From Candidatus Omnitrophota bacterium (GTDB taxonomy: Bacteria > Omnitrophota > Gorgyraeia > Gygaellales > Profunditerraquicolaceae): a DNA stretch of 64,000 bases. Under the pieces are notes generated by a model, which did not search any database, was not told the origin of the DNA, and saw only the letters and a list, made by a program, of their open reading frames with translations. The stretch covers positions 11,800 through 75,799 of the forward strand of contig JAOAET010000051.1 of NCBI GenBank assembly GCA_026416665.1, given 5' to 3'. Both the position numbers and the translations under genes were made by a program. Below, one piece after another: positions 471 through 10,158 of this stretch (position 1 is its first letter; every line of letters begins with the position of its first letter).

Positions 471-3092
471 TTATAAACTTGCGTTACCTGGAATAAGTTT
501 TAAAACCTCATCCCTCAGCTTCTTGGCGATTGTTTCGTAGTCCCCATTTAACTGTTGAGGATAAATTGGATGGCCAAAGATAACCTTTATTGGATGTGGC
601 CGAGGCAATTTCGCACTTCTTGGCCAAGAATAATGTGAACCTTGAATATATACAGGAACTACTGGGATACCTAACTCTTTTATTAAGATACCCACTCCTT
701 TTTTGAACTCTTTTACCTGTTTATCTATAGAACGCCTGCCCTCAGGAAATATACAAACAGTTTTCTTATGCGATAATACGAAAGAAACTGCCTGCATACC
801 TAAGGTTAAGTGGGTCTCAGTATCAATAGAAATTAAACGACATATCTTGATTGCCCAACTCAGTAAAGGATGTTCAAAAATACGTTGATATCCTACAAAG
901 TAAGTATTAATAGAAATCTTAAAAGGTAAACTTAAGAAAATAAATAACCCGTCTAGGTAACTGGCATGGTTTGGACAGATAAGATACGGTCCTTGTTTGG
1001 GCAGATTTTGACTACCTTGGCTTCTTAATAACCACAAGATTCTAAAAAGTAATAAAAAAATGTTTTTGATTACAAAAGTAATTACGGTCTCATAAAACCC
1101 AAAATCAATTTTTATCTTTTTAATTACCTCTTCTGGAGGCAATTCAGCTAAAATTTCCTTCCAATTTTTTTCTTTGGTTTTTGTATGTCTTGGATTTTTG
1201 TTTTGAATTAATTGCTCTAAATTTATAATGAGGTCTTTAACAGTAGCTACTTTATAGAGTAACTCATCAGGAATTTTTATCTTTAAAAGTGCTTCTAAAC
1301 CCAAACCAAGTTCTACTCTTGTTAGAGAGTCAATGCCAAGGTCAATTTCAAGGTGACTATTTAAATCCACAGGTTTTTTTATTTCCTCTGAAATATAACG
1401 AATTATTTTTTTAGCGATTTCTTTATTTAAAATCGCCAGTTCCTCTTCTGTATAAGATGCCTTTTCTTCTTTAACAGGCAAATTCTTTGACAAATATTTT
1501 TCTATTAACTGATAACGTTTAATCTTTCCCAAAGCAGTCCTAGGCAACTTTTCTTTGGTAAGGACAAACCCCATGATATGTTGATAAGAAGGAAGCTTCT
1601 TACTTAATGCCTCTAAATCCCAGCGTATTTTCTCACGGATATTTAATTCTCTTTTTTGCTTAAAATATTCTAAGTCTGGCACTATAACAGCAAAAAGCAA
1701 AACGCTAGGATAACCAAAGGTCTTTTCTGTCTTAGGGATAATAGCTATCTCTTTTATCCAAGGACTGGTTTGGTAATACTCTTCCAATTCCTCGGGATAG
1801 ATGTTCTTACCCGACGACAAAACAATAACTTCTTTTTCTCTACCTACAAGGAAAAGATATCCTTCCTTATCAATGTAACCTAAATCACCAGAATAAAACC
1901 AACCTTCTCTGATTGTGTCTGCGGTTAACTTTTCCTGTTTAAAATATCCTGCCATTACATTAGGGCCTTTAATCAATACCTGACCTATTGCCTTTTTATC
2001 AGGATTGGCTATCTTAATTTCTACATCAGGCAATGGCTTTCCTACAGAACCAAATTTTATTCTATTTGGTGGATTAATTGTCACTACTGGCGAGGTCTCA
2101 GTCAATCCGTAACCTTCAATTATTTTTAACCCTAAGGTTGTTAAACCTTTTCCGATATCCGGTTCCAAACGCGCCCCACCGCTTACTAATAACCGTAAAC
2201 TGCCGAATTTACTACGCAATCTTATCCTGACAAAAGGCAAAATCAAAGGTCTTAAGACAAAAGGAATATTTTGTATCTTCTCCATTATTGCCTTATGAAG
2301 AAGAGAAAAAATCTGCGGCACCCCTACCAAAATTGTGATCGAGGCCTCACTTATTATCTGAAAAATTTCTTGAGATTTAATATTTAAGGCATAGGTCACT
2401 TTAGCGCCTAAGAAAAGCGGAACAATCAAAGTTACCATAAAGGCATACGCATGATACAAAGGTAAAACAGAAAGAAAATTATCTGAAGGATAACAAAGAT
2501 TTAGTTTTTTAATACTAATAAAATTTGAGCAGATATTCTTGTGTGTAAGCATTACTGCCTTGGGTTTACCCGTTGTTCCTGAGGTATAAATAAGCGAAGC
2601 GATATCCTCAGGTTTGACTTCAGGCCAGTTAATATGTTCGTAAGAAACATTCTTTATTTTTTCCTTTACTTCCTCTGCATCCAAAACGATAGCTTCTGTT
2701 TTAGTTCCTACTATGGCCTGCTTTATTTTTTTACTAAAGAGGTCATTGCTGGTAAAAACAATCTTCGCACTACAATCCAGTATAATATTTCTTATCTCAT
2801 CTGGACTTAATTGGGGGTCTAAAGGCAAACAGGATAAACCTGCTTTCATTATCCCAAAATACACTGTAGCCCACTCAGGACAGTTCTCTAAAATTAAACA
2901 GGCAAAATCCCCTTTTTTCAGGCCTTTTTCTCTGATCAAGAATCCAGCTAATTTTAAGGACAGGTCTTCTAATTGTTTGTAAGTCCATTTTTCCCAAACT
3001 GAGCCTTTTTTTATTTGAAAACACACCTGCTGAGGAAAATTTCGGACTGTCTTGCTAAAAAATTCAGTGATAACTAAATTCTCTTCATTCAT
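471..3092 (-). CDS. Tri-domain fusion: acyl-AMP/acyl-CoA ligase (AMP-binding), acyl-carrier-protein domain, transmembrane segment and PlsC-type lysophospholipid acyltransferase
   Basis: N-terminal AMP-binding motif 'LIYTSGTTGKPKAV', then 'YSGDLGY' and 'GKI' motifs. A phosphopantetheine attachment site 'LEIDLGIDSLTRVEL' follows. A hydrophobic helix comes next, then the PlsC catalytic motifs 'PNHASYLD' (HX4D) and 'FPEGRRS'. The ORF track starts at 3134, but the second Met (MNEENL...) at 3092 forms an ATGA overlap with the upstream stop, so that is the likely true start. Confidence 0.8.
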   Translation of the reverse strand: MNEENLVITEFFSKTVRNFPQQVCFQIKKGSVWEKWTYKQLEDLSLKLAGFLIREKGLKKGDFACLILENCPEWATVYFGIMKAGLSCLPLDPQLSPDEIRNIILDCSAKIVFTSNDLFSKKIKQAIVGTKTEAIVLDAEEVKEKIKNVSYEHINWPEVKPEDIASLIYTSGTTGKPKAVMLTHKNICSNFISIKKLNLCYPSDNFLSVLPLYHAYAFMVTLIVPLFLGAKVTYALNIKSQEIFQIISEASITILVGVPQIFSLLHKAIMEKIQNIPFVLRPLILPFVRIRLRSKFGSLRLLVSGGARLEPDIGKGLTTLGLKIIEGYGLTETSPVVTINPPNRIKFGSVGKPLPDVEIKIANPDKKAIGQVLIKGPNVMAGYFKQEKLTADTIREGWFYSGDLGYIDKEGYLFLVGREKEVIVLSSGKNIYPEELEEYYQTSPWIKEIAIIPKTEKTFGYPSVLLFAVIVPDLEYFKQKRELNIREKIRWDLEALSKKLPSYQHIMGFVLTKEKLPRTALGKIKRYQLIEKYLSKNLPVKEEKASYTEEELAILNKEIAKKIIRYISEEIKKPVDLNSHLEIDLGIDSLTRVELGLGLEALLKIKIPDELLYKVATVKDLIINLEQLIQNKNPRHTKTKEKNWKEILAELPPEEVIKKIKIDFGFYETVITFVIKNIFLLLFRILWLLRSQGSQNLPKQGPYLICPNHASYLDGLFIFLSLPFKISINTYFVGYQRIFEHPLLSWAIKICRLISIDTETHLTLGMQAVSFVLSHKKTVCIFPEGRRSIDKQVKEFKKGVGILIKELGIPVVPVYIQGSHYSWPRSAKLPRPHPIKVIFGHPIYPQQLNGDYETIAKKLRDEVLKLIPGNASL

Positions 3093-3895
3093 TTTAGATG
3101 GCGTTTTAGAAAGTCTGAGATTTTCAGCATACACTCTTGATTGTAAATGTAGAAGGCATCATTATGTCCACCTTGCATAACATACAACTCTTTTGGTTCT
3201 TTAGCTGCTGTAAAGAGCATCTGGGCATGTTTAAATGGCACAATCTCATCATTTTTACTGTGAATAAAAAGTTTAGGCATGGTGATTGTGCCTACTTTTT
3301 TTAGCGAGTCGTATTTTTGCGTTACAAAAAGCCACAGAGGAATAAATTTATAGATATCTTTGGCTAAGTTGACAATAGAGGAAAAACCACTTTCAGAAAT
3401 AAGTGCTCCTGCTTTTACCTTGCTTGCCAAATCAATAGCTACTGCTGCACCTAAGGATTTTCCGTAAAGCACGATTTTTTCAGGCGGTATTCTTTTTGTC
3501 TTGACCAGATATTCATAGGCAGCTATTGCATCTAAATATGTTCCTAATTCAGATGGGCTACCTTGACTTCTTCCAAACCCGCGGTAGTCAAAGATAAAAA
3601 AACTAAAGTTTCTTTCATTAAATAATTTAGCTACTTCTATACGGTGGCTGATATTGCCAGCATTTCCGTGAAAATAAAGAACCACTATATCCTGATTTTG
3701 TGCAGGAATAAACCAACCGTTTAGGATAAGACCGTCTTGTGTTTTAAAAAATATATCTTCATAATTTAAGCCTCTACCTAATGGTGTAAATTCTATAGTT
3801 TTTTCAGGATAAAAGATTGATTTATATTCAAATATTCTCATATATATAAGAAAAAGTGATACTAAAATAATTAAAAGAATAACTTTTCTTAACAT
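3089..3895 (-). CDS. Membrane-anchored alpha/beta-fold hydrolase (BEM46/ABHD-like)
   Basis: N-terminal TM helix, 'HGNAGN' oxyanion-region motif, GxSxG nucleophile elbow 'GKSLGAA' and a C-terminal 'GGHND' His motif. Its TGA stop overlaps the ATG of the downstream fusion gene (ATGA). Confidence 0.75.
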   Translation of the reverse strand: MLRKVILLIILVSLFLIYMRIFEYKSIFYPEKTIEFTPLGRGLNYEDIFFKTQDGLILNGWFIPAQNQDIVVLYFHGNAGNISHRIEVAKLFNERNFSFFIFDYRGFGRSQGSPSELGTYLDAIAAYEYLVKTKRIPPEKIVLYGKSLGAAVAIDLASKVKAGALISESGFSSIVNLAKDIYKFIPLWLFVTQKYDSLKKVGTITMPKLFIHSKNDEIVPFKHAQMLFTAAKEPKELYVMQGGHNDAFYIYNQECMLKISDFLKRHLK

Positions 3896-4243
3896 TCTCT
3901 GCTGTGCTTATCTGGGGCAAAGTAAAAACAAAAATACTACTTTAATCCTCCAGCATCACGCCTGCCCGTAAATTCCTCTAATCAGTATTTATTCTCTCAG
4001 GAACTTCCCAGAAGAATGGTAATAATCTTTACCGTGTGCACAAAGATAAAACCTGAAACTTCACCAATACAGTCAACAATATATCCTACCTAAAATGACA
4101 AAAATTCGAAAGAAACAAACCGATTGTCTAAGTTTCATTTAATCTAAAAACGCACCTTATATAACCAGATATATAAAAAATAAATACCTTTACTAAACAT
4201 AAATCCCTAAATAACGTAAGTAAATTCAGAACCCCTTTTCTCT

Positions 4244-5845
4244 CTATTCATTAAAAAGGATTTTCATAACTGTAGATAAATCCGTTACCAGTTTTTGTAT
4301 AGATGTATAATCTAACTTTTCATAGGTGTCTTCTGGTGTATGGTAATAAGGATTACGACAAAAGGCTGTATCGGTTAACATTATGGCTTGGTAGCCAAAT
4401 CTCCAAAAGGACCAATGGTCAGAGAAGCTTATTTCTGGTATTAAAAAAATTGGGGCAACTAAAAACTCTATCGGCAAACTTGACTGTTTCTTAAATTCCC
4501 TGACTATCTTCTTCAAAAAACCTGAAGAACGAAGATTACTTATTGACGCGATAAAATTTCCCTTATCAGGATAGTAATATCTGAAGAGCCTTGTAGGATA
4601 GTTCTGTGAATTTCTTTTATTTGAATAATAACCTATAGACTCTAAACATATAACCCCTACAATATTATCCCCTCTTTTTTTTGCTTCTTGTGCGTATTGG
4701 AAACTGCCCATATCCTTAGTCATAAAAAAAGGTGGCTCTTCATTGGTAAAAGCAATAAATTTTATAGTTTGTTTGATTTCTTCTGGTGATAAAATCCTGG
4801 CTATTTCAAGAAGCCCAGCTACTCCAGAGGCATTATCATCTGCTCCGACAGAACCGATTACTGAATCATAATGAGCACACACAATGAGAATTTTCTCAGG
4901 GTGCACTTTACCTATTTTAGTAGCAATAATATTTCTATAAATTTTTCCTTCCAGGGAATAAACCTGCTCTTGTGGTTGGTAGCCATAATTCTTAAATTCT
5001 TGTTTTATATAATCAGCTGCTTGCTCTAAGTTTTGGTGGTGGCTAAAATTTCTCTCGCCTATATCTATTGATAGAAATTTAACATGTTTTTTTAGATTAT
5101 CATGTATTATTTGCTCTTGATACGTGTCTTTAGTCTGGTCTGTCTTAGCCCTTATCATCGGAACAAATCTCACGGGAATAATATTACTAATCACAATCTT
5201 GCCATTTTCCTTTTTGACTAATTTTAATTCTTGATAGTCAGCTCCTACGGGAATAACTAATCTTCCACCTTCAGCCAGTTGCTCTATCAAGGGCTTCGGG
5301 ATATCTTCTGCAGCGCAGGTAACTATAATCGCATCAAAAGGAGCCTGCTCGGGCCATCCCAGAAAACCATCTGCACATTTAACGTGGATATTTTTGTAAC
5401 CTAAATCTGTAAGTAATCTCTCTGCACGCTCTGCCAAAGGTTTTAATATCTCTATGGTATAAACCTGGTGGCTTAACTCTGCTAAAATCGCTGCTTGGTA
5501 TCCAGACCCAGTGCCTATCTCAAGTACCTTCTGGTTACCTTTCAACTCAAGAAGCTCGGTCATCAATGCTACAATATAGGGTTGGGAGATAGTCTGACCT
5601 TCACCAATCGGCAGTGGTGTGTCATCGTAAGCAAAAGGTCTAAATAACTCAGGGACAAATAAATGTCTTTTTACTTTACGCATTGCCTCTAAAACAGGCG
5701 TATCTTTTATGCCCCGCGCTTGTATCTGTTCTATTACCATCTTCTCTCTTTGCCGGTCAAAGTCCTGACACCAGACATTTCTGTTTAAAGTTAGAGAAAA
5801 CATACTGATAAACACCAATAGTTCTGCTTTTTGTTTAAGCTGCAT
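4244..5845 (-). CDS. Fusion of protein-L-isoaspartate O-methyltransferase (PIMT/Pcm) and M28 family Zn-aminopeptidase, with an N-terminal signal or anchor sequence
   Basis: Hydrophobic N-terminus '[12 protein letters not shown]'. PIMT motifs '[17 protein letters not shown]' and '[18 protein letters not shown]'. C-terminal M28 metal ligands 'CAHYDSV', '[12 protein letters not shown]', 'FTNEE' and 'YYHTPEDT'. Confidence 0.8.
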
Positions 5846-5902: not shown

Positions 5903-6604
5903 TTATTTTCTTTTACCTACTGGCATTATATATAGCGGTTCTTCTTTTATATTTAAGACCTTTTTTACTGCCTCATCTACAAATGCACCAACAGCTACAG
6001 TGGCAAGACCTAAAGATTCTGCCTGAAGATAGATATTTTGTCCAACATGTCCTGCCTCAATATGAACATATCTTTCTCCTCGTTCTCCGTACTTTTGCTT
6101 TGTTCTTTCATACTGGGCACAAATAACCAAGCTTACGGGCGCATTTTTTACGGCAGTTTGAAAAAGAGAGCTAGCAGATAAAGCAAGTCGCTTATCACCA
6201 TCAACGATTTTAATAAGCGAATGTCTTTTGGGATTATATTGATAAACCCCTGTTGTTAATTTTTCTACATTACCAACCACTAAATAAATCTCTAAAGGAT
6301 AAAGAGCACCTGCAGAAGGAACAGCCCTACCACCCCATTTAGTAGTAATTCCTTGTGCTGACCAGAGAAGTTGTGCAACCTCCTCTAAACTTAAGGGGGC
6401 ATCTTTATATTCCCTTACCGACCTTCTTTTAAAAATAGCCTGCTCTACTGAAAGTTTACCTGTTGTCTGAATTGCTGGAAGTTTTATCTCTTCTTTACTT
6501 TCACTTTCTGCTAAAATTATTCCTTTATTTTTTAGAAAATAACCAACAGAAAGTAATTCTGCAAACATAATTACGCTTGCAATAACTAAAAAATATTTCT
6601 TCAT
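5903..6604 (-). CDS. SagB-type dehydrogenase / nitroreductase-family protein with an N-terminal signal or anchor
   Basis: 'RRSVREY', 'AVPSAGALYPLEIY', 'YERTKQKYGERGERYVHIEAGHVGQNIYLQAESLGLATVAVGAF' and a terminal 'PVG' are the signature blocks of the SagB-type dehydrogenase domain of the nitroreductase superfamily. Hydrophobic N-terminus. Confidence 0.75.
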   Translation of the reverse strand: MKKYFLVIASVIMFAELLSVGYFLKNKGIILAESESKEEIKLPAIQTTGKLSVEQAIFKRRSVREYKDAPLSLEEVAQLLWSAQGITTKWGGRAVPSAGALYPLEIYLVVGNVEKLTTGVYQYNPKRHSLIKIVDGDKRLALSASSLFQTAVKNAPVSLVICAQYERTKQKYGERGERYVHIEAGHVGQNIYLQAESLGLATVAVGAFVDEAVKKVLNIKEEPLYIMPVGKRK

Positions 6605-8001: not shown

Positions 8002-8169
8002 TTATAAATGATTTAGCACGAAATTACAGAAATAACTAACCAATAAATCAAAGATATCTTTATGATACCTGTGATTATATCTAAATTCAAGTTCTTTAAG
8101 ATAAAGAGGTAATCTTTCTTTAGATAACCCATGAAACTTTATAAGTTTTTCTAAAGTTGTGGTCTGCAT
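8002..8169 (-). pseudogene. Remnant of an IS1595/ISXO2-like transposase, C-terminal 55-aa fragment
   Basis: The minus-strand ORF reads MQTTTLEKLIKFHGLSKERLPLYLKELEFRYNHRYHKDIFDLLVSYFCNFVLNHL. The 'HL(P)LYLKEfEFRYNhR' block is the characteristic C-terminal motif of IS1595-family (ISXO2-like DDE) transposases. No upstream catalytic domain remains. It lies in an ORF-free AT-rich island next to tRNA-His. Confidence 0.45.
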
Positions 8170-8384: not shown

Positions 8385-8462
8385 TGGGGTGGCTGAGGGG
8401 GCTCGAACCCCCAACCCTCAGAGCCACAGTCTGATGCTCTAGCCAGTTGAGCTACAGCCACC
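8385..8462 (-). tRNA. tRNA-His (anticodon GUG)
   Basis: The reverse complement is GGTGGCTGTAGCTCAACTGGCTAGAGCATCAGACTGTGGCTCTGAGGGTTGGGGGTTCGAGCCCCCTCAGCCACCCCA. It has the extra 5' G(-1) typical of tRNA-His, anticodon loop CTGTGGC and an encoded CCA. It is very close to E. coli tRNA-His. Confidence 0.9.
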
Positions 8463-8559: not shown

Positions 8560-10158
8560 CTAATTACTAGTATTACTTGAAGTTATTTCTTGCTTTTCTC
8601 CCTGCTTGATTGCTGGCGAAGTTTCTTTTTGTTCTCTACGAAAGCTTGCCTTTAAGGCACCAGTTAATTCTTGACCTATTCCTACTGTAGTATTAATTAG
8701 CGATTTTGTCAAGTCAGCGGCCGTAGAAAAAGTATCCTTTATTGCCGAAGCAGGCAAACGGATAACCTTGCCTACAGGACTCGGACGAGGTGCTGCTTGA
8801 CTTAAACGCTCTACTAAGGCATTACGAATAACCTGAATACCAAATTCTGGACTATCAAATTTTGTCCTGTAGGTAAAATCTAAAACTATTGCCTCCTGAT
8901 TCTGCTGTCTTAGCATTCCAATGACTTTTTCTGTAAGACGTTCAAGCCGGTCTTTTTGTTCATCCTTCTGCCTTGGTTTAAACTCAAGCTGGGTAAGTTC
9001 AAGTCTACAAAAAGCAGTAACTTCATTATTTACCCCAGTTATATTGCTGGTGAAGTTAAAACGTGCCTTTTGAATCCGTGCTTTCTCTATGTCAACCCAA
9101 GGGCTAAAATATGGCGAAAGTTTAATTGCGTCTAGATTTTTTATGCGAACATTAGCGTTTATGTTACGTCTATAGAAGTTAACCCAACCATCTATTACTA
9201 AAACACCTTTTTCATCTAACTGTGCTGAAGGAATATTTGCCCGGATTTTAAAAAAATTGACTGTATCAGCAGTAACTGGCCAACGAAAGTTTTCAATTAC
9301 AGCGTTTATTTCTTTCAGATTTAACTCAAGTGGCTGTTCACTTATCTTATGATCAACAAATCGTATCTGCCCTTCGGTTAAAATGATTTTCTTTATATAC
9401 AGAGAGTTTATAGGTATATTGCTTAGATTGCTAAGATTTAGACCTTGAATTCTTTTGCGAAACAAAGACAAAGGTACTTGTTCGCTTGAAACAGCCTGCG
9501 AACCCTGTGAGAAAAATTCAGATGAAGTTAAAGTTAGCTTTTGATTATTTTGGTTATCTTCCGGCAATAAAAAATTAGTTTTATTTTGAATTTGTATTTG
9601 AGCCTGCTGTTGTGTTTGACTTCCTGTTAAGTTCATTAGTTGATTTTGCTCTTGGATTTTTGGGGTTACTTGAGATTGCGTTTGTGATTCTCTATAAAAC
9701 TCCTCTCTAACTTTTAAATTTTTTTCTTTTGTGGAAACGGATTCACCAGAAGATACGTCTGTTGATGCAGGCGGTGACTTTACTTGTGTTTCAATATTCT
9801 GGTTTAAGGCGGAGTTTTCTAAATTATTTTGTTGTTTTTTCCGTTCAATTACAAAATCAAGCCCTTCTAAGTTAAGCTCAGATAAAACAATATTTTGTCT
9901 TAACAGACCAATAACGCCAAGACCTGCAGAAAGCTTCTTACAGTAAAACAAGTCATTTACTTTAAGGTCCAAAACCACCAACTTTAAAGGCAATTCCATA
10001 GTGATTGAACCAATCTGAACTCGCCGCCCAAAAAGCCTTTCTAAACGACTGGTGAAAATCTGTGGACCTTTTTTACTTACAAGATAATCTAAAGAAAAAA
10101 AAGCCAATAGTGCTATCACTAAAATGCCAACGGTAAACCAAATTACTACTCTGGTCAT
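8560..10158 (-). CDS. Membrane-anchored AsmA-like / DUF748-like protein with a Gln/Asn-rich low-complexity linker
   Basis: N-terminal TM helix, AsmA-like N- and C-terminal blocks and a central Q/N/S-rich region (~residues 110-230). Confidence 0.5.
   Translation of the reverse strand: MTRVVIWFTVGILVIALLAFFSLDYLVSKKGPQIFTSRLERLFGRRVQIGSITMELPLKLVVLDLKVNDLFYCKKLSAGLGVIGLLRQNIVLSELNLEGLDFVIERKKQQNNLENSALNQNIETQVKSPPASTDVSSGESVSTKEKNLKVREEFYRESQTQSQVTPKIQEQNQLMNLTGSQTQQQAQIQIQNKTNFLLPEDNQNNQKLTLTSSEFFSQGSQAVSSEQVPLSLFRKRIQGLNLSNLSNIPINSLYIKKIILTEGQIRFVDHKISEQPLELNLKEINAVIENFRWPVTADTVNFFKIRANIPSAQLDEKGVLVIDGWVNFYRRNINANVRIKNLDAIKLSPYFSPWVDIEKARIQKARFNFTSNITGVNNEVTAFCRLELTQLEFKPRQKDEQKDRLERLTEKVIGMLRQQNQEAIVLDFTYRTKFDSPEFGIQVIRNALVERLSQAAPRPSPVGKVIRLPASAIKDTFSTAADLTKSLINTTVGIGQELTGALKASFRREQKETSPAIKQGEKQEITSSNTSN

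Follow-up and report, generated by a model that had tools for sequence, protein, structure and literature searches.

A PIMT-M28 fusion protein with a predicted export signal, conserved in one clade of Omnitrophota

The window (the whole 64-kb stretch of DNA analysed here, from an uncultured Omnitrophota bacterium) carries a single uninterrupted, ATG-started open reading frame (ORF) on its minus strand, in which a segment with the character of an export signal is followed by a PIMT domain, that of a protein-repair methyltransferase, and then by an M28 peptidase domain. Both domains are recognised by Pfam on the one chain (PCMT and Peptidase_M28), both have intact active sites, and the arrangement is conserved in related genomes. 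On balance, and with modest confidence, we believe that the fusion is a Sec-exported bifunctional enzyme which either repairs or degrades isoaspartyl (isoAsp)-damaged polypeptides outside the cytoplasm. The features to which the text refers are as follows.

4244..5845, minus strand: whole ORF, without internal stop, 533 aa plus stop codon; signal peptide, PIMT, linker and M28
5768..5845, minus strand: predicted Sec-type signal peptide, residues 1-26, followed by QD (heuristic features and orthologue alignment)
5150..5755, minus strand: PIMT/Pcm domain, residues 31-232 (Pfam, NCBIfam, alignment with 3lbf, Foldseek)
5102..5149, minus strand: charged, variable inter-domain linker, residues 233-248 (orthologue alignment, AlphaFold2 pLDDT)
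4247..5101, minus strand: M28 di-zinc exopeptidase domain, residues 249-533 (Pfam, metal ligands, Foldseek)
5903..6604, minus strand: SagB/ThcOx-type nitroreductase, upstream neighbour, with an N-terminal hydrophobic segment and 57 nt from the fusion (Pfam, TIGR03605)

The identity of the PIMT domain is clear from several directions. Pfam PCMT matches residues 34-232 (E 5.5e-67, 226 bits vs a threshold of 20.3), and two NCBIfam equivalogs for housekeeping PIMTs are passed: PRK00312 with 264 bits (cut-off 188) and TIGR00080 with 241 bits (cut-off 159). The domain aligns with residues 7-207 of the 210-aa Escherichia coli Pcm (3lbf, E 1.6e-58); similarly, when the PIMT part of an AlphaFold2 model is compared with the same structure by Foldseek, the TM score is 0.90 (target-normalised; E 3.8e-21, 49% identity). 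Both motifs quoted in the preliminary description, which gave no strand, are present in the ORF. The isoAsp-binding TxS, the SAM-binding GxGxG, the post-motif-I acidic residue and the motif II Asp-Gly are all kept and are identical to those of E. coli Pcm. Across 13 fusion orthologues T85, S87, G111, G113, G115, D159 and G160 are invariant and E132 is nearly so, being replaced by D in P0004. We predict that the PIMT half is catalytically competent and SAM-dependent, and that it would methyl-esterify L-isoaspartyl peptides. E. coli Pcm (EC 2.1.1.77; PDB 3LBF) resembles it along the whole domain but is a free-standing cytoplasmic protein of ~210 aa, whereas the window domain stands behind a Sec-type signal and is tethered to a peptidase. 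Thermotoga maritima PIMT (1DL5) is likewise a multi-domain protein with an extra domain at its C-terminus, although that domain is not a peptidase.

The M28 half is equally complete. Pfam Peptidase_M28 covers residues 305-519 (E 8.7e-30, 104 bits vs a threshold of 21.3), and the ligand set consists of H325-x-D327, D337, E369-E370, E402 and H477, all of which are invariant in the 13 orthologues with the exception of H477, which is nearly invariant. H325, D337, E370, E402 and H477 align to H97, D117, E152, D179 and H256 of the Vibrio/Aeromonas proteolytica aminopeptidase (AAP), and beside these five metal ligands are the catalytic Glu (E369) and the Asp of the HxD motif (D327). Foldseek places the model of this half close to AAP (1amp, 3b35) and SGAP, with TM scores of 0.74-0.77. 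It is predicted to be a catalytically competent di-zinc exopeptidase, probably with aminopeptidase activity. AAP (1AMP), SGAP (1CP7) and Bacillus YwaD/BSAP (6HC6) are secreted enzymes that share its fold (TM about 0.75) and co-catalytic ligands, but their identity to it is only 20-22% and they have no PIMT partner. The best NCBIfam peptidase match, LapA, reaches 43 bits against a cut-off of 600, and the domain falls in a separate, uncharacterised family (~300 aa, found in many phyla) with an NEEPP motif, a third of whose members have N or Q where the last His ligand would be. Standalone relatives begin at the equivalent of residue ~249, immediately after their own signal peptide, which most of them carry. 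A glutaminyl-cyclase assignment was considered and rejected, as those enzymes match the model less well in structure than the di-zinc aminopeptidases do, and no di-zinc ligand is missing.

Between the two domains lies the least conserved part of the orthologue alignment. In the AlphaFold2 model residues 223-240 have a pLDDT below 50 and the overall pTM is 0.58; the packing of the two domains is therefore not confident, and we make no claim that their active sites face each other. As modelled, the tether appears to be flexible and roughly 16-25 residues long. Neither a second PIMT nor a second M28 paralogue was found within the 64-kb window.

The in-frame fusion given in the preliminary description, with both catalytic sites intact, is real, and it is kept in relatives. 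It recurs in about 14 full-length protein clusters (P0001-P0014; 62-74% identity) drawn from JGI, ENA, NCBI and Logan, and each of the seven further metagenome loci with an M28 of 62% identity or more, from independent samples, is an in-frame fusion. The frame runs from one domain to the other without a stop codon, both in the window and in over 20 independent contigs. Because the architecture recurs at such identities in independent assemblies it is a feature far beyond chance, and we can confirm that it is not an assembly artefact. The relatives do not, as a whole, encode the two halves as separate genes, and the SAM-binding residues have not been lost.

The fusion is, however, restricted to a single narrow clade of Omnitrophota, with M28 halves of at least 62% identity. 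In a close relative (L094) the same two families, 61% (M28) and 70% (PIMT) identical to the window halves, form an operon rather than a fusion: the M28 gene (P0040) comes first, its stop overlaps the start of the PIMT gene by 11 nt, and each of the separate polypeptides has its own signal peptide, in the reverse of the order seen in the fusion. The fusion may have arisen within one Omnitrophota subclade from such co-transcribed genes for an exported M28 and an exported PIMT. In a survey of M28 genome loci from many phyla, a PIMT lay within 6 kb at only 1 of 80, on the opposite strand, and at metagenome loci with M28 below 54% identity no PIMT stood beside the M28; the association is thus clade-specific. 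A second, distant lineage of PIMT-M28 fusions was also sought, and among 1.84 billion cluster representatives no match covers both halves of the query. In relatives, an MFS gene is translationally coupled to the fusion.

Here we must turn to the N-terminus. A Sec (SPase I) signal was taken to need a basic n-region, an h-region of about 7-15 residues and small residues at -3/-1, scored by heuristic only, and by this scoring the window protein has a basic n-region, an uncharged hydrophobic core of 12-13 residues and a -3/-1 site. Its V-W-C at that site aligns with the canonical VQA/Q and VLA/Q sites of P0002 and P0003. Across the orthologues the character of the segment is kept while its sequence diverges, and a signal-like segment occurs in frame in every orthologue with enough upstream sequence; this includes P0004, which seems to lack a signal until its reading frame is extended back to an upstream ATG. 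Of 15 sequences, 13 have a more positive charge in the n-flank than in the following 15 residues. In the window protein itself the two flank charges are tied (+1 and +1), so its topology is read largely from the orthologues. Export of the fusion is well supported by these comparisons, and the protein would be Sec-exported and either periplasmic or envelope-associated. The signal-peptide-like N-terminus of the preliminary description is accordingly borne out as a genuine export signal conserved in orthologues. The membrane-anchored, cytoplasmic orientation suggested there is disfavoured, as the basic n-regions, the cores of mostly 12-18 residues, and the lipoboxes and periplasm-only fusions of relatives all point outward. 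To our knowledge a cytoplasmic location is a property of all characterised PIMTs, although it is not a formal criterion of the family; the window PIMT departs from it in its orthologue-conserved Sec-type signal, and its relatives do so in their lipoboxes and periplasm-only partners.

Such relatives are numerous. An N-terminal hydrophobic segment is found in 40 of the 60 nearest PIMT cluster representatives, and a lipobox-like motif in 14 of the 41 classed as exported (background 1.7%). T85, S87, GxGxG, E132 and G160 are present in 100% of the 41 exported clusters and D159 in 39 of them, so that conservation of the SAM/isoAsp site is 95-100% and indistinguishable from that of PIMTs without signal peptides; please note that the sample was picked by similarity to the query and is therefore biased towards conserved sequences. 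YkuD (a peptidoglycan L,D-transpeptidase) and Peripla_BP_2 are domains of the periplasm only, and exported PIMTs are fused to each of them (YkuD in P0129). In addition, a second peptidase family is paired with an exported PIMT, in the lipobox-PIMT-M54 fusion P0086; at another locus (L167) a PIMT gene is followed by a separate M54 gene, the standalone M54 having no signal peptide. P0077 is a fusion of a nucleoside transporter and a PIMT. The window protein belongs to a large and apparently undescribed group of exported repair methyltransferases. The preliminary description called an export signal on a SAM-dependent enzyme unusual, and this holds against the literature that we searched (which included PIMT-M28, isoAsp in Omnitrophota, and the resistance of isoAsp to aminopeptidases), where no paper on an exported bacterial PIMT was found; it does not hold in sequence space, where exported PIMTs are common among the nearest representatives. 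The pcm of R. sphaeroides, an apparent case from the literature, was set aside on finding that it has no signal peptide.

How might such an enzyme work? Aged or damaged extracytoplasmic polypeptides would gather beta-linked isoaspartyl residues, an obstacle to exopeptidases. The PIMT domain would methylate the free alpha-carboxyl of the isoAsp, and the methyl ester would give way to a succinimide that reopens in part to normal Asp, after which the tethered aminopeptidase could resume trimming from the N-terminus. The converse view is that the peptidase may dispose of chains that the PIMT binds without being able to restore them. The accepted view of isoaspartate repair is of a cytoplasmic process fuelled by SAM, and we know of no SAM pool in the periplasm; neither a SAM pool, nor a SAM exporter, nor a methyltransferase described for that compartment was found in the searched literature. 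As the signals are of Sec or lipoprotein type, a pre-bound cofactor cannot be carried out with the enzyme. Repair by an exported PIMT would need SAM to be available outside the cytoplasm.

The lack of a known SAM source is an argument for supposing that a PIMT outside the cell works without SAM, as an isoAsp-recognition module that transfers no methyl group and feeds damaged polypeptides to the peptidase. There are PIMT homologues without catalytic function: the CI-PIMT of Paracoccus denitrificans complex I (8QBY chain t) is a PIMT fold recruited into a larger assembly, on the cytoplasmic side, and has lost its catalytic and SAM-binding residues (PMC11522691). However, in PIMTs known to be inactive the TxS and DG residues are missing (PMC11522691), while the window protein keeps every catalytic and SAM-binding residue that CI-PIMT has lost, and these are invariant or nearly so both in the 13 fusion orthologues and in the 41 independent exported clusters. 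If the domain did not bind SAM, it would be difficult to account for selection on the residues that contact it. The retention of SAM- and isoAsp-binding residues argues against the SAM-independent recognition that the preliminary description had raised, and we consider it unlikely. The supply of SAM would also be solved if the protein were a secreted effector, with which a predatory or parasitic Omnitrophota cell processes prey proteins in a prey or host where SAM is available, and most Omnitrophota have been proposed to be predators or parasites (PMC10066038). Yet the protein has a plain Sec signal only, with no adjacent secretion-system genes; exported and lipoprotein PIMTs look widespread and have varied periplasmic partners, the sole taxon name found among them being Syntrophorhabdaceae; and a lipoprotein PIMT remains anchored to the envelope of its own producer. 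We regard an effector role as very improbable. Almost no credence is given to a cytoplasmic protein, translated from M36 (with a Pcm-like N-terminus) or from M230, or to a chimeric assembly. The NCBI record for the same contig annotates only a 304-aa M28 that starts at M230 (P0015, 100% identity), no clear Shine-Dalgarno sequence precedes the ATG at 5845, and P0004 and P0012 are annotated without signal peptides. Against these stand the uninterrupted frame and the in-frame signal segments described above, as well as residues 20-35, upstream of M36, where the protein sequence is conserved. A start at M230 would leave the M28 without a signal peptide, unlike most standalone relatives, and no ribosome-binding site is evident before it.

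The gene upstream of the fusion, which was left out of the preliminary description, is a nitroreductase (Pfam Nitroreductase, E 5e-35) that passes the SagB model TIGR03605 with 143 bits (cut-off 78). Its adjacency to the fusion is kept at L003/L088, L087, L089 and L090, which form the closest subclade, and the more divergent fusions at L001, L092 and L093 have no immediate nitroreductase neighbour. The mature nitroreductase domain shares 42% identity (E 2e-53) with the C-terminal domain of P0136, in which a lipobox, a PIMT and a nitroreductase are joined, but no PIMT is fused to any of the 120 best nitroreductase homologues, so the link between the two families is weak. The SagB-type nitroreductase is a possible partner of the fusion. 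It is also the basis, together with P0136 and the PIMT-YkuD fusion, for a RiPP-like tailoring of extracytoplasmic peptides, in which a succinimide would be formed by the PIMT, on purpose rather than for repair, in a specific peptide or cell-wall substrate; further modification would fall to the SagB-type FMN dehydrogenase and trimming of the product to the M28. The preliminary description had offered RiPP tailoring as an alternative, and its chance of being correct seems to us slim. The window domain passes the housekeeping equivalogs and falls far under the RiPP-type models, scoring 151 against 320 for TIGR04364 (FxLD) and 125 against 380 for TIGR04188 (ATP-grasp maturase); the methyltransferases of these two models resemble it in fold, in succinimide-forming chemistry and in acting on peptides, but have a C-terminal extension that is absent from the window domain, which is adjoined by no RiPP precursor or core enzyme. 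No precursor-like gene was found among ORFs of at least 25 aa between 3800 and 8700, where the small ORFs overlap a tRNA-His and a probable transposase remnant. Similarly, flanking ORFs and orthologous loci yielded no lanthipeptide synthetase, lasso cyclase, ATP-grasp or YcaO gene, and the sole neighbour suggestive of RiPPs is the standalone SagB-type dehydrogenase, without YcaO.

Returning to exported repair-or-degrade activity as the preferred reading, an intact PIMT and a secreted-type aminopeptidase behind a conserved signal would amount to direct genomic evidence of isoAsp-repair chemistry in the cell envelope, and the exported and lipoprotein PIMTs with their unchanged SAM-binding sites may point the same way. 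If it is confirmed, the question it poses becomes directly testable using one soluble protein, and the fusion would provide a physical example of the coupling of repair and degradation for aged proteins. Should the PIMT turn out to have no activity outside the cell, the domain would still be of use, as a naturally occurring isoAsp reader. A wider reading, which we put forward tentatively and think rather doubtful as a whole, is that SAM-dependent repair takes place outside the cytoplasm, with the PIMT-M28 protein and the SagB-type enzyme as a triage machine. If it were true, isoAsp in envelope proteins would be methylated by a large clade of PIMTs that are periplasmic or lipoproteins, an unrecognised route would bring SAM to the periplasm and remove SAH, and the PIMT-M28 protein and the SagB-type flavoenzyme would carry out dedicated extracytoplasmic triage of damaged proteins. 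Candidate leads for the SAM/SAH route would be the MFS gene coupled to the fusion in relatives and the transporter fusion P0077. In its extreme version the SagB-type dehydrogenase would act on the succinimide made by the PIMT, or the target would be a cell-wall peptide, as hinted by the PIMT-YkuD fusion.

A scan for promoters and terminators gave counts no better than those of shuffled sequence and so says nothing about operon boundaries. Envelope-lipid repair by an LplT/Aas-like pair was considered for the neighbouring genes and dropped, as their NCBIfam matches are only to a generic MFS and an acyl-CoA ligase. In the source record the gene is represented by its M28 half alone, and this annotation could be corrected if the preferred reading is confirmed.

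Positions 4244..5845 (minus strand) hold a single unbroken ORF with an ATG start, encoding 533 aa. The in-frame fusion of a protein-L-isoaspartate O-methyltransferase (PIMT) to an M28 aminopeptidase, proposed in the preliminary description, is borne out, as one chain carries both Pfam domains:

Residues 34-232: PCMT (Pfam E 5.5e-67)
Residues 305-519: Peptidase_M28 (Pfam E 8.7e-30)

The PIMT half scores above the curated cut-offs of the NCBIfam housekeeping PIMT equivalogs (PRK00312, 264 bits vs 188; TIGR00080, 241 vs 159), and its alignment with E. coli Pcm (3lbf, 210 aa) covers Pcm residues 7-207 (E 1.6e-58). The M28 half can be aligned with AAP, SGAP, and YwaD, all secreted di-zinc aminopeptidases, so that the metal-ligand motifs coincide. 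In an AlphaFold2 model (mean pLDDT 84), the PIMT part matches 3lbf with a TM of 0.90 (49% identity) and the M28 part matches AAP and SGAP with a TM of about 0.75; bacterial glutaminyl cyclases are a poorer structural match to the latter. Since the linker region (residues 223-240) has a pLDDT <50 and the overall pTM is 0.58, the two domains look flexibly tethered. Every testable membership feature of these two well-known families was found, with the exception of the cytoplasmic location of PIMT.

In the NCBI record of this contig, the only product annotated from the ORF is a 304-aa "M20/M25/M40 family metallo-hydrolase" (P0015, 100% identical) starting at the internal M230 (about window position 5158), so that the signal peptide and entire PIMT part go unannotated. 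We regard this start site as an annotation error, because the product would have no signal peptide, unlike most standalone M28 relatives, and because inspection of the sequence upstream of M230 found no ribosome-binding site.

The fusion is not an artefact. It recurs in 14 full-length clusters (62-74% identity; word-indexed search of 5.8 billion proteins) from JGI, ENA, NCBI, and Logan assemblies, the named ones being Omnitrophota MAGs. A metagenome scan using the M28 half alone returned 80 loci; the M28 is ≥62% identical in seven, and in each of these an in-frame PIMT precedes it. HMMER, run exhaustively over cluster representatives (1.84 billion, 50% identity), found nothing that matched both halves, so the fusion is one narrow clade rather than a recurrent architecture. 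Two M28-only proteins, P0019 (326 aa) and P0033 (337 aa), have a fusion-type signal peptide and a remnant of PIMT helix 1 (…SVQAQGIKDT… and …EEFSRQRERMVRDQ…), with M28 beginning right after it; they resemble products of secondary PIMT loss or artefacts of short contigs.

Several independent lines of sequence evidence consistently support export. In the orthologues, the export signal noted earlier retains its character (basic n-region, uncharged core that is mostly 12-18 residues long, -3/-1 site) even as its sequence diverges. In 13/15 sequences the n-flank carries more positive charge than the 15 residues after it; the window protein is tied (+1 and +1), so its own case leans on the orthologues, and cleavage after C26 is a heuristic call. 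P0004, an orthologue seemingly without a signal, has an in-frame upstream ATG encoding MRFLSSGNKKTKARFIFLIIVIKVISF…, and residues 20-35, upstream of the alternative start M36, show protein-level conservation among 13 fusion orthologues. Most standalone M28 relatives open with their own signal peptide followed directly by the equivalent of residue ~249, and in the closely related locus L094, M28 and PIMT are separate genes with an 11-nt overlap and a signal peptide each.

Export extends well beyond the fusion. Among the query's 60 nearest PIMT-type cluster representatives, an N-terminal hydrophobic segment precedes the PIMT core in 40, and by-eye addition of lipobox-type cases gives an exported class of 41, of which 14 have a lipobox-like motif (vs 1.7% of internal control windows). 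Signal/lipobox-bearing PIMTs are also fused to a YkuD L,D-transpeptidase domain (P0129) and to a Peripla_BP_2 solute-binding domain (P0198), partners that work only outside the cytoplasm. No account of this large clade of exported and lipoprotein PIMTs was found in the literature searched. The novelty lies in the pairing and its location, with an M28 peptidase covalently joined to a Sec-exported PIMT, and in the place of this protein within the clade. Tandem PIMT-PIMT proteins of 440-525 aa also occur (P0020, P0022, P0023, P0027-P0029); most start with a signal peptide or lipobox, which P0028 lacks in its annotated form. The isoAsp motif of the first repeat is degenerate in P0022 and P0036 (TIPRPY or IIPRPY replacing TISQPY), a sign that one copy is inactive and the other active.

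The narrow clade links PIMT and M28 twice, as the fusion and as the overlapping pair in opposite order (M28, PIMT) in L094. The pattern is repeated with M54, an unrelated metallopeptidase family: P0086 fuses a lipobox-bearing PIMT to M54, and in L167, a single contig, the gene for P0077 (175-2076), whose C-terminal part is a PIMT, is directly followed by a separate Peptidase_M54 gene (2157-2714) whose product has no signal peptide, a caveat on this parallel. The M28 family itself is widespread, with hosts in Nitrospirota, Acidobacteriota, Proteobacteria (including Cupriavidus necator and Methylobacter luteus), Planctomycetota, Myxococcota, and others. Outside the clade it has no PIMT neighbourhood (a PIMT lies ≤6 kb away in 1/80 genome loci, on the opposite strand), so the coupling is a lineage-specific innovation.

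Could the exported PIMT merely recognize isoAsp independently of SAM, as was suggested at the outset? The residues argue against it. Among 13 fusion orthologues, isoAsp-binding T85 and S87, SAM-binding G111, G113, and G115, with E132, D159, and G160, and M28 H325, D327, D337, E369, E370, and E402 are invariant or nearly so. T85, S87, GxGxG, E132, and G160 are conserved in 100% of the 41 exported PIMTs (one per cluster at ≤50% identity) and D159 in 39/41, although this sample was picked by similarity to the query; conservation is equal in 11 PIMTs without signal peptides. Known inactive PIMT homologues, for example RPA2580 of R. palustris and a complex I subunit of Paracoccus (PMC11522691), have lost precisely the TxS and DG residues. 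The last zinc ligand, H477 (about 4415..4417; equivalent to AAP H256), is Q in 2/15 fused members and Asn or Gln in 34/105 standalone members, with all other ligands fixed; part of this uncharacterised M28 family may be mono-zinc or non-canonical.

RiPP-like peptide tailoring is a further alternative. Around the fusions of the closest subclade, genes run in the order nitroreductase, fusion, MFS, alpha/beta-hydrolase, and AMP-binding/ACP/acyltransferase protein; more divergent fusions are located elsewhere. The window contains:

5903..6604, minus strand: SagB/ThcOx-type nitroreductase, 57 nt upstream of the fusion, carrying a hydrophobic N-terminal stretch
3089..3895, minus strand: membrane-anchored alpha/beta-hydrolase, its gene end overlapping the next gene by 46 nt
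471..3134, minus strand: AMP-binding/phosphopantetheine-binding/acyltransferase tri-domain protein, 887 aa

The nitroreductase is a tentative candidate partner because its mature domain shares 42% identity (E 2e-53) with the C-terminal domain of the lipobox-PIMT-nitroreductase fusion P0136; the link is weak, since 0/120 of the top nitroreductase homologues are fused to PIMT. It is the only element keeping the RiPP reading alive, which otherwise fails: RiPP-type PIMT models score far below cut-off (151 vs 320 and 125 vs 380), and neither a precursor gene nor core RiPP enzymes were found near the fusion. The hydrolase and tri-domain pair, kept downstream of the fusion in relatives, recalls Aas-type lysophospholipid re-acylation, with matches to generic families only.

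PIMT transfers a methyl group to the free alpha-carboxyl of an L-isoaspartyl residue; the methyl ester cyclises to a succinimide that reopens partly to normal Asp. For ordinary peptidases, beta-linked isoAsp is a poor substrate. The best-supported reading of the fusion is an extracytoplasmic repair-or-degrade enzyme, built on what was observed, namely the domain architecture, the intact sites of both halves, export, conservation of the fusion, and the operon form in a relative. The PIMT would engage isoAsp sites in aged envelope or imported polypeptides, isomerisation driven by methylation would relieve the isoAsp block, and the tethered exopeptidase would trim the chain. Both activities, their substrates, and SAM availability are inferred.

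SAM supply is the central weakness of this reading, because the literature searched contained no account of either a methyltransferase or SAM in the periplasm and the Sec route excludes a pre-bound cofactor. An exported nitroreductase would pose the same puzzle for FMN. Two candidate leads can be offered. An MFS gene, with generic family matches only, starts overlapping the fusion stop codon in L003 (9598-10830), L005, L087, L089, and L090; in the window it is absent, and a 348-nt non-coding gap (3896..4243) stands instead. P0077 is a concentrative nucleoside transporter with a C-terminal PIMT 75% identical to the query's, on what is presumably the extracytoplasmic side, and could bear on SAM/SAH transport. 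The fusion is a narrow-lineage event, yet it offers a clean, testable entry to SAM-dependent chemistry outside the cytoplasm.

Further upstream lie:

8560..10158, minus strand: 532-aa protein, hydrophobic at its N-terminus, with a long low-complexity middle rich in Gln, Ser, and Asn; no Pfam match
8385..8461, minus strand: tRNA-His (GTG anticodon)
8002..8169, minus strand: short ORF resembling a transposase tail, near the tRNA

The last two sit within a low-GC gap of ~1 kb between a radical SAM gene and the next gene.
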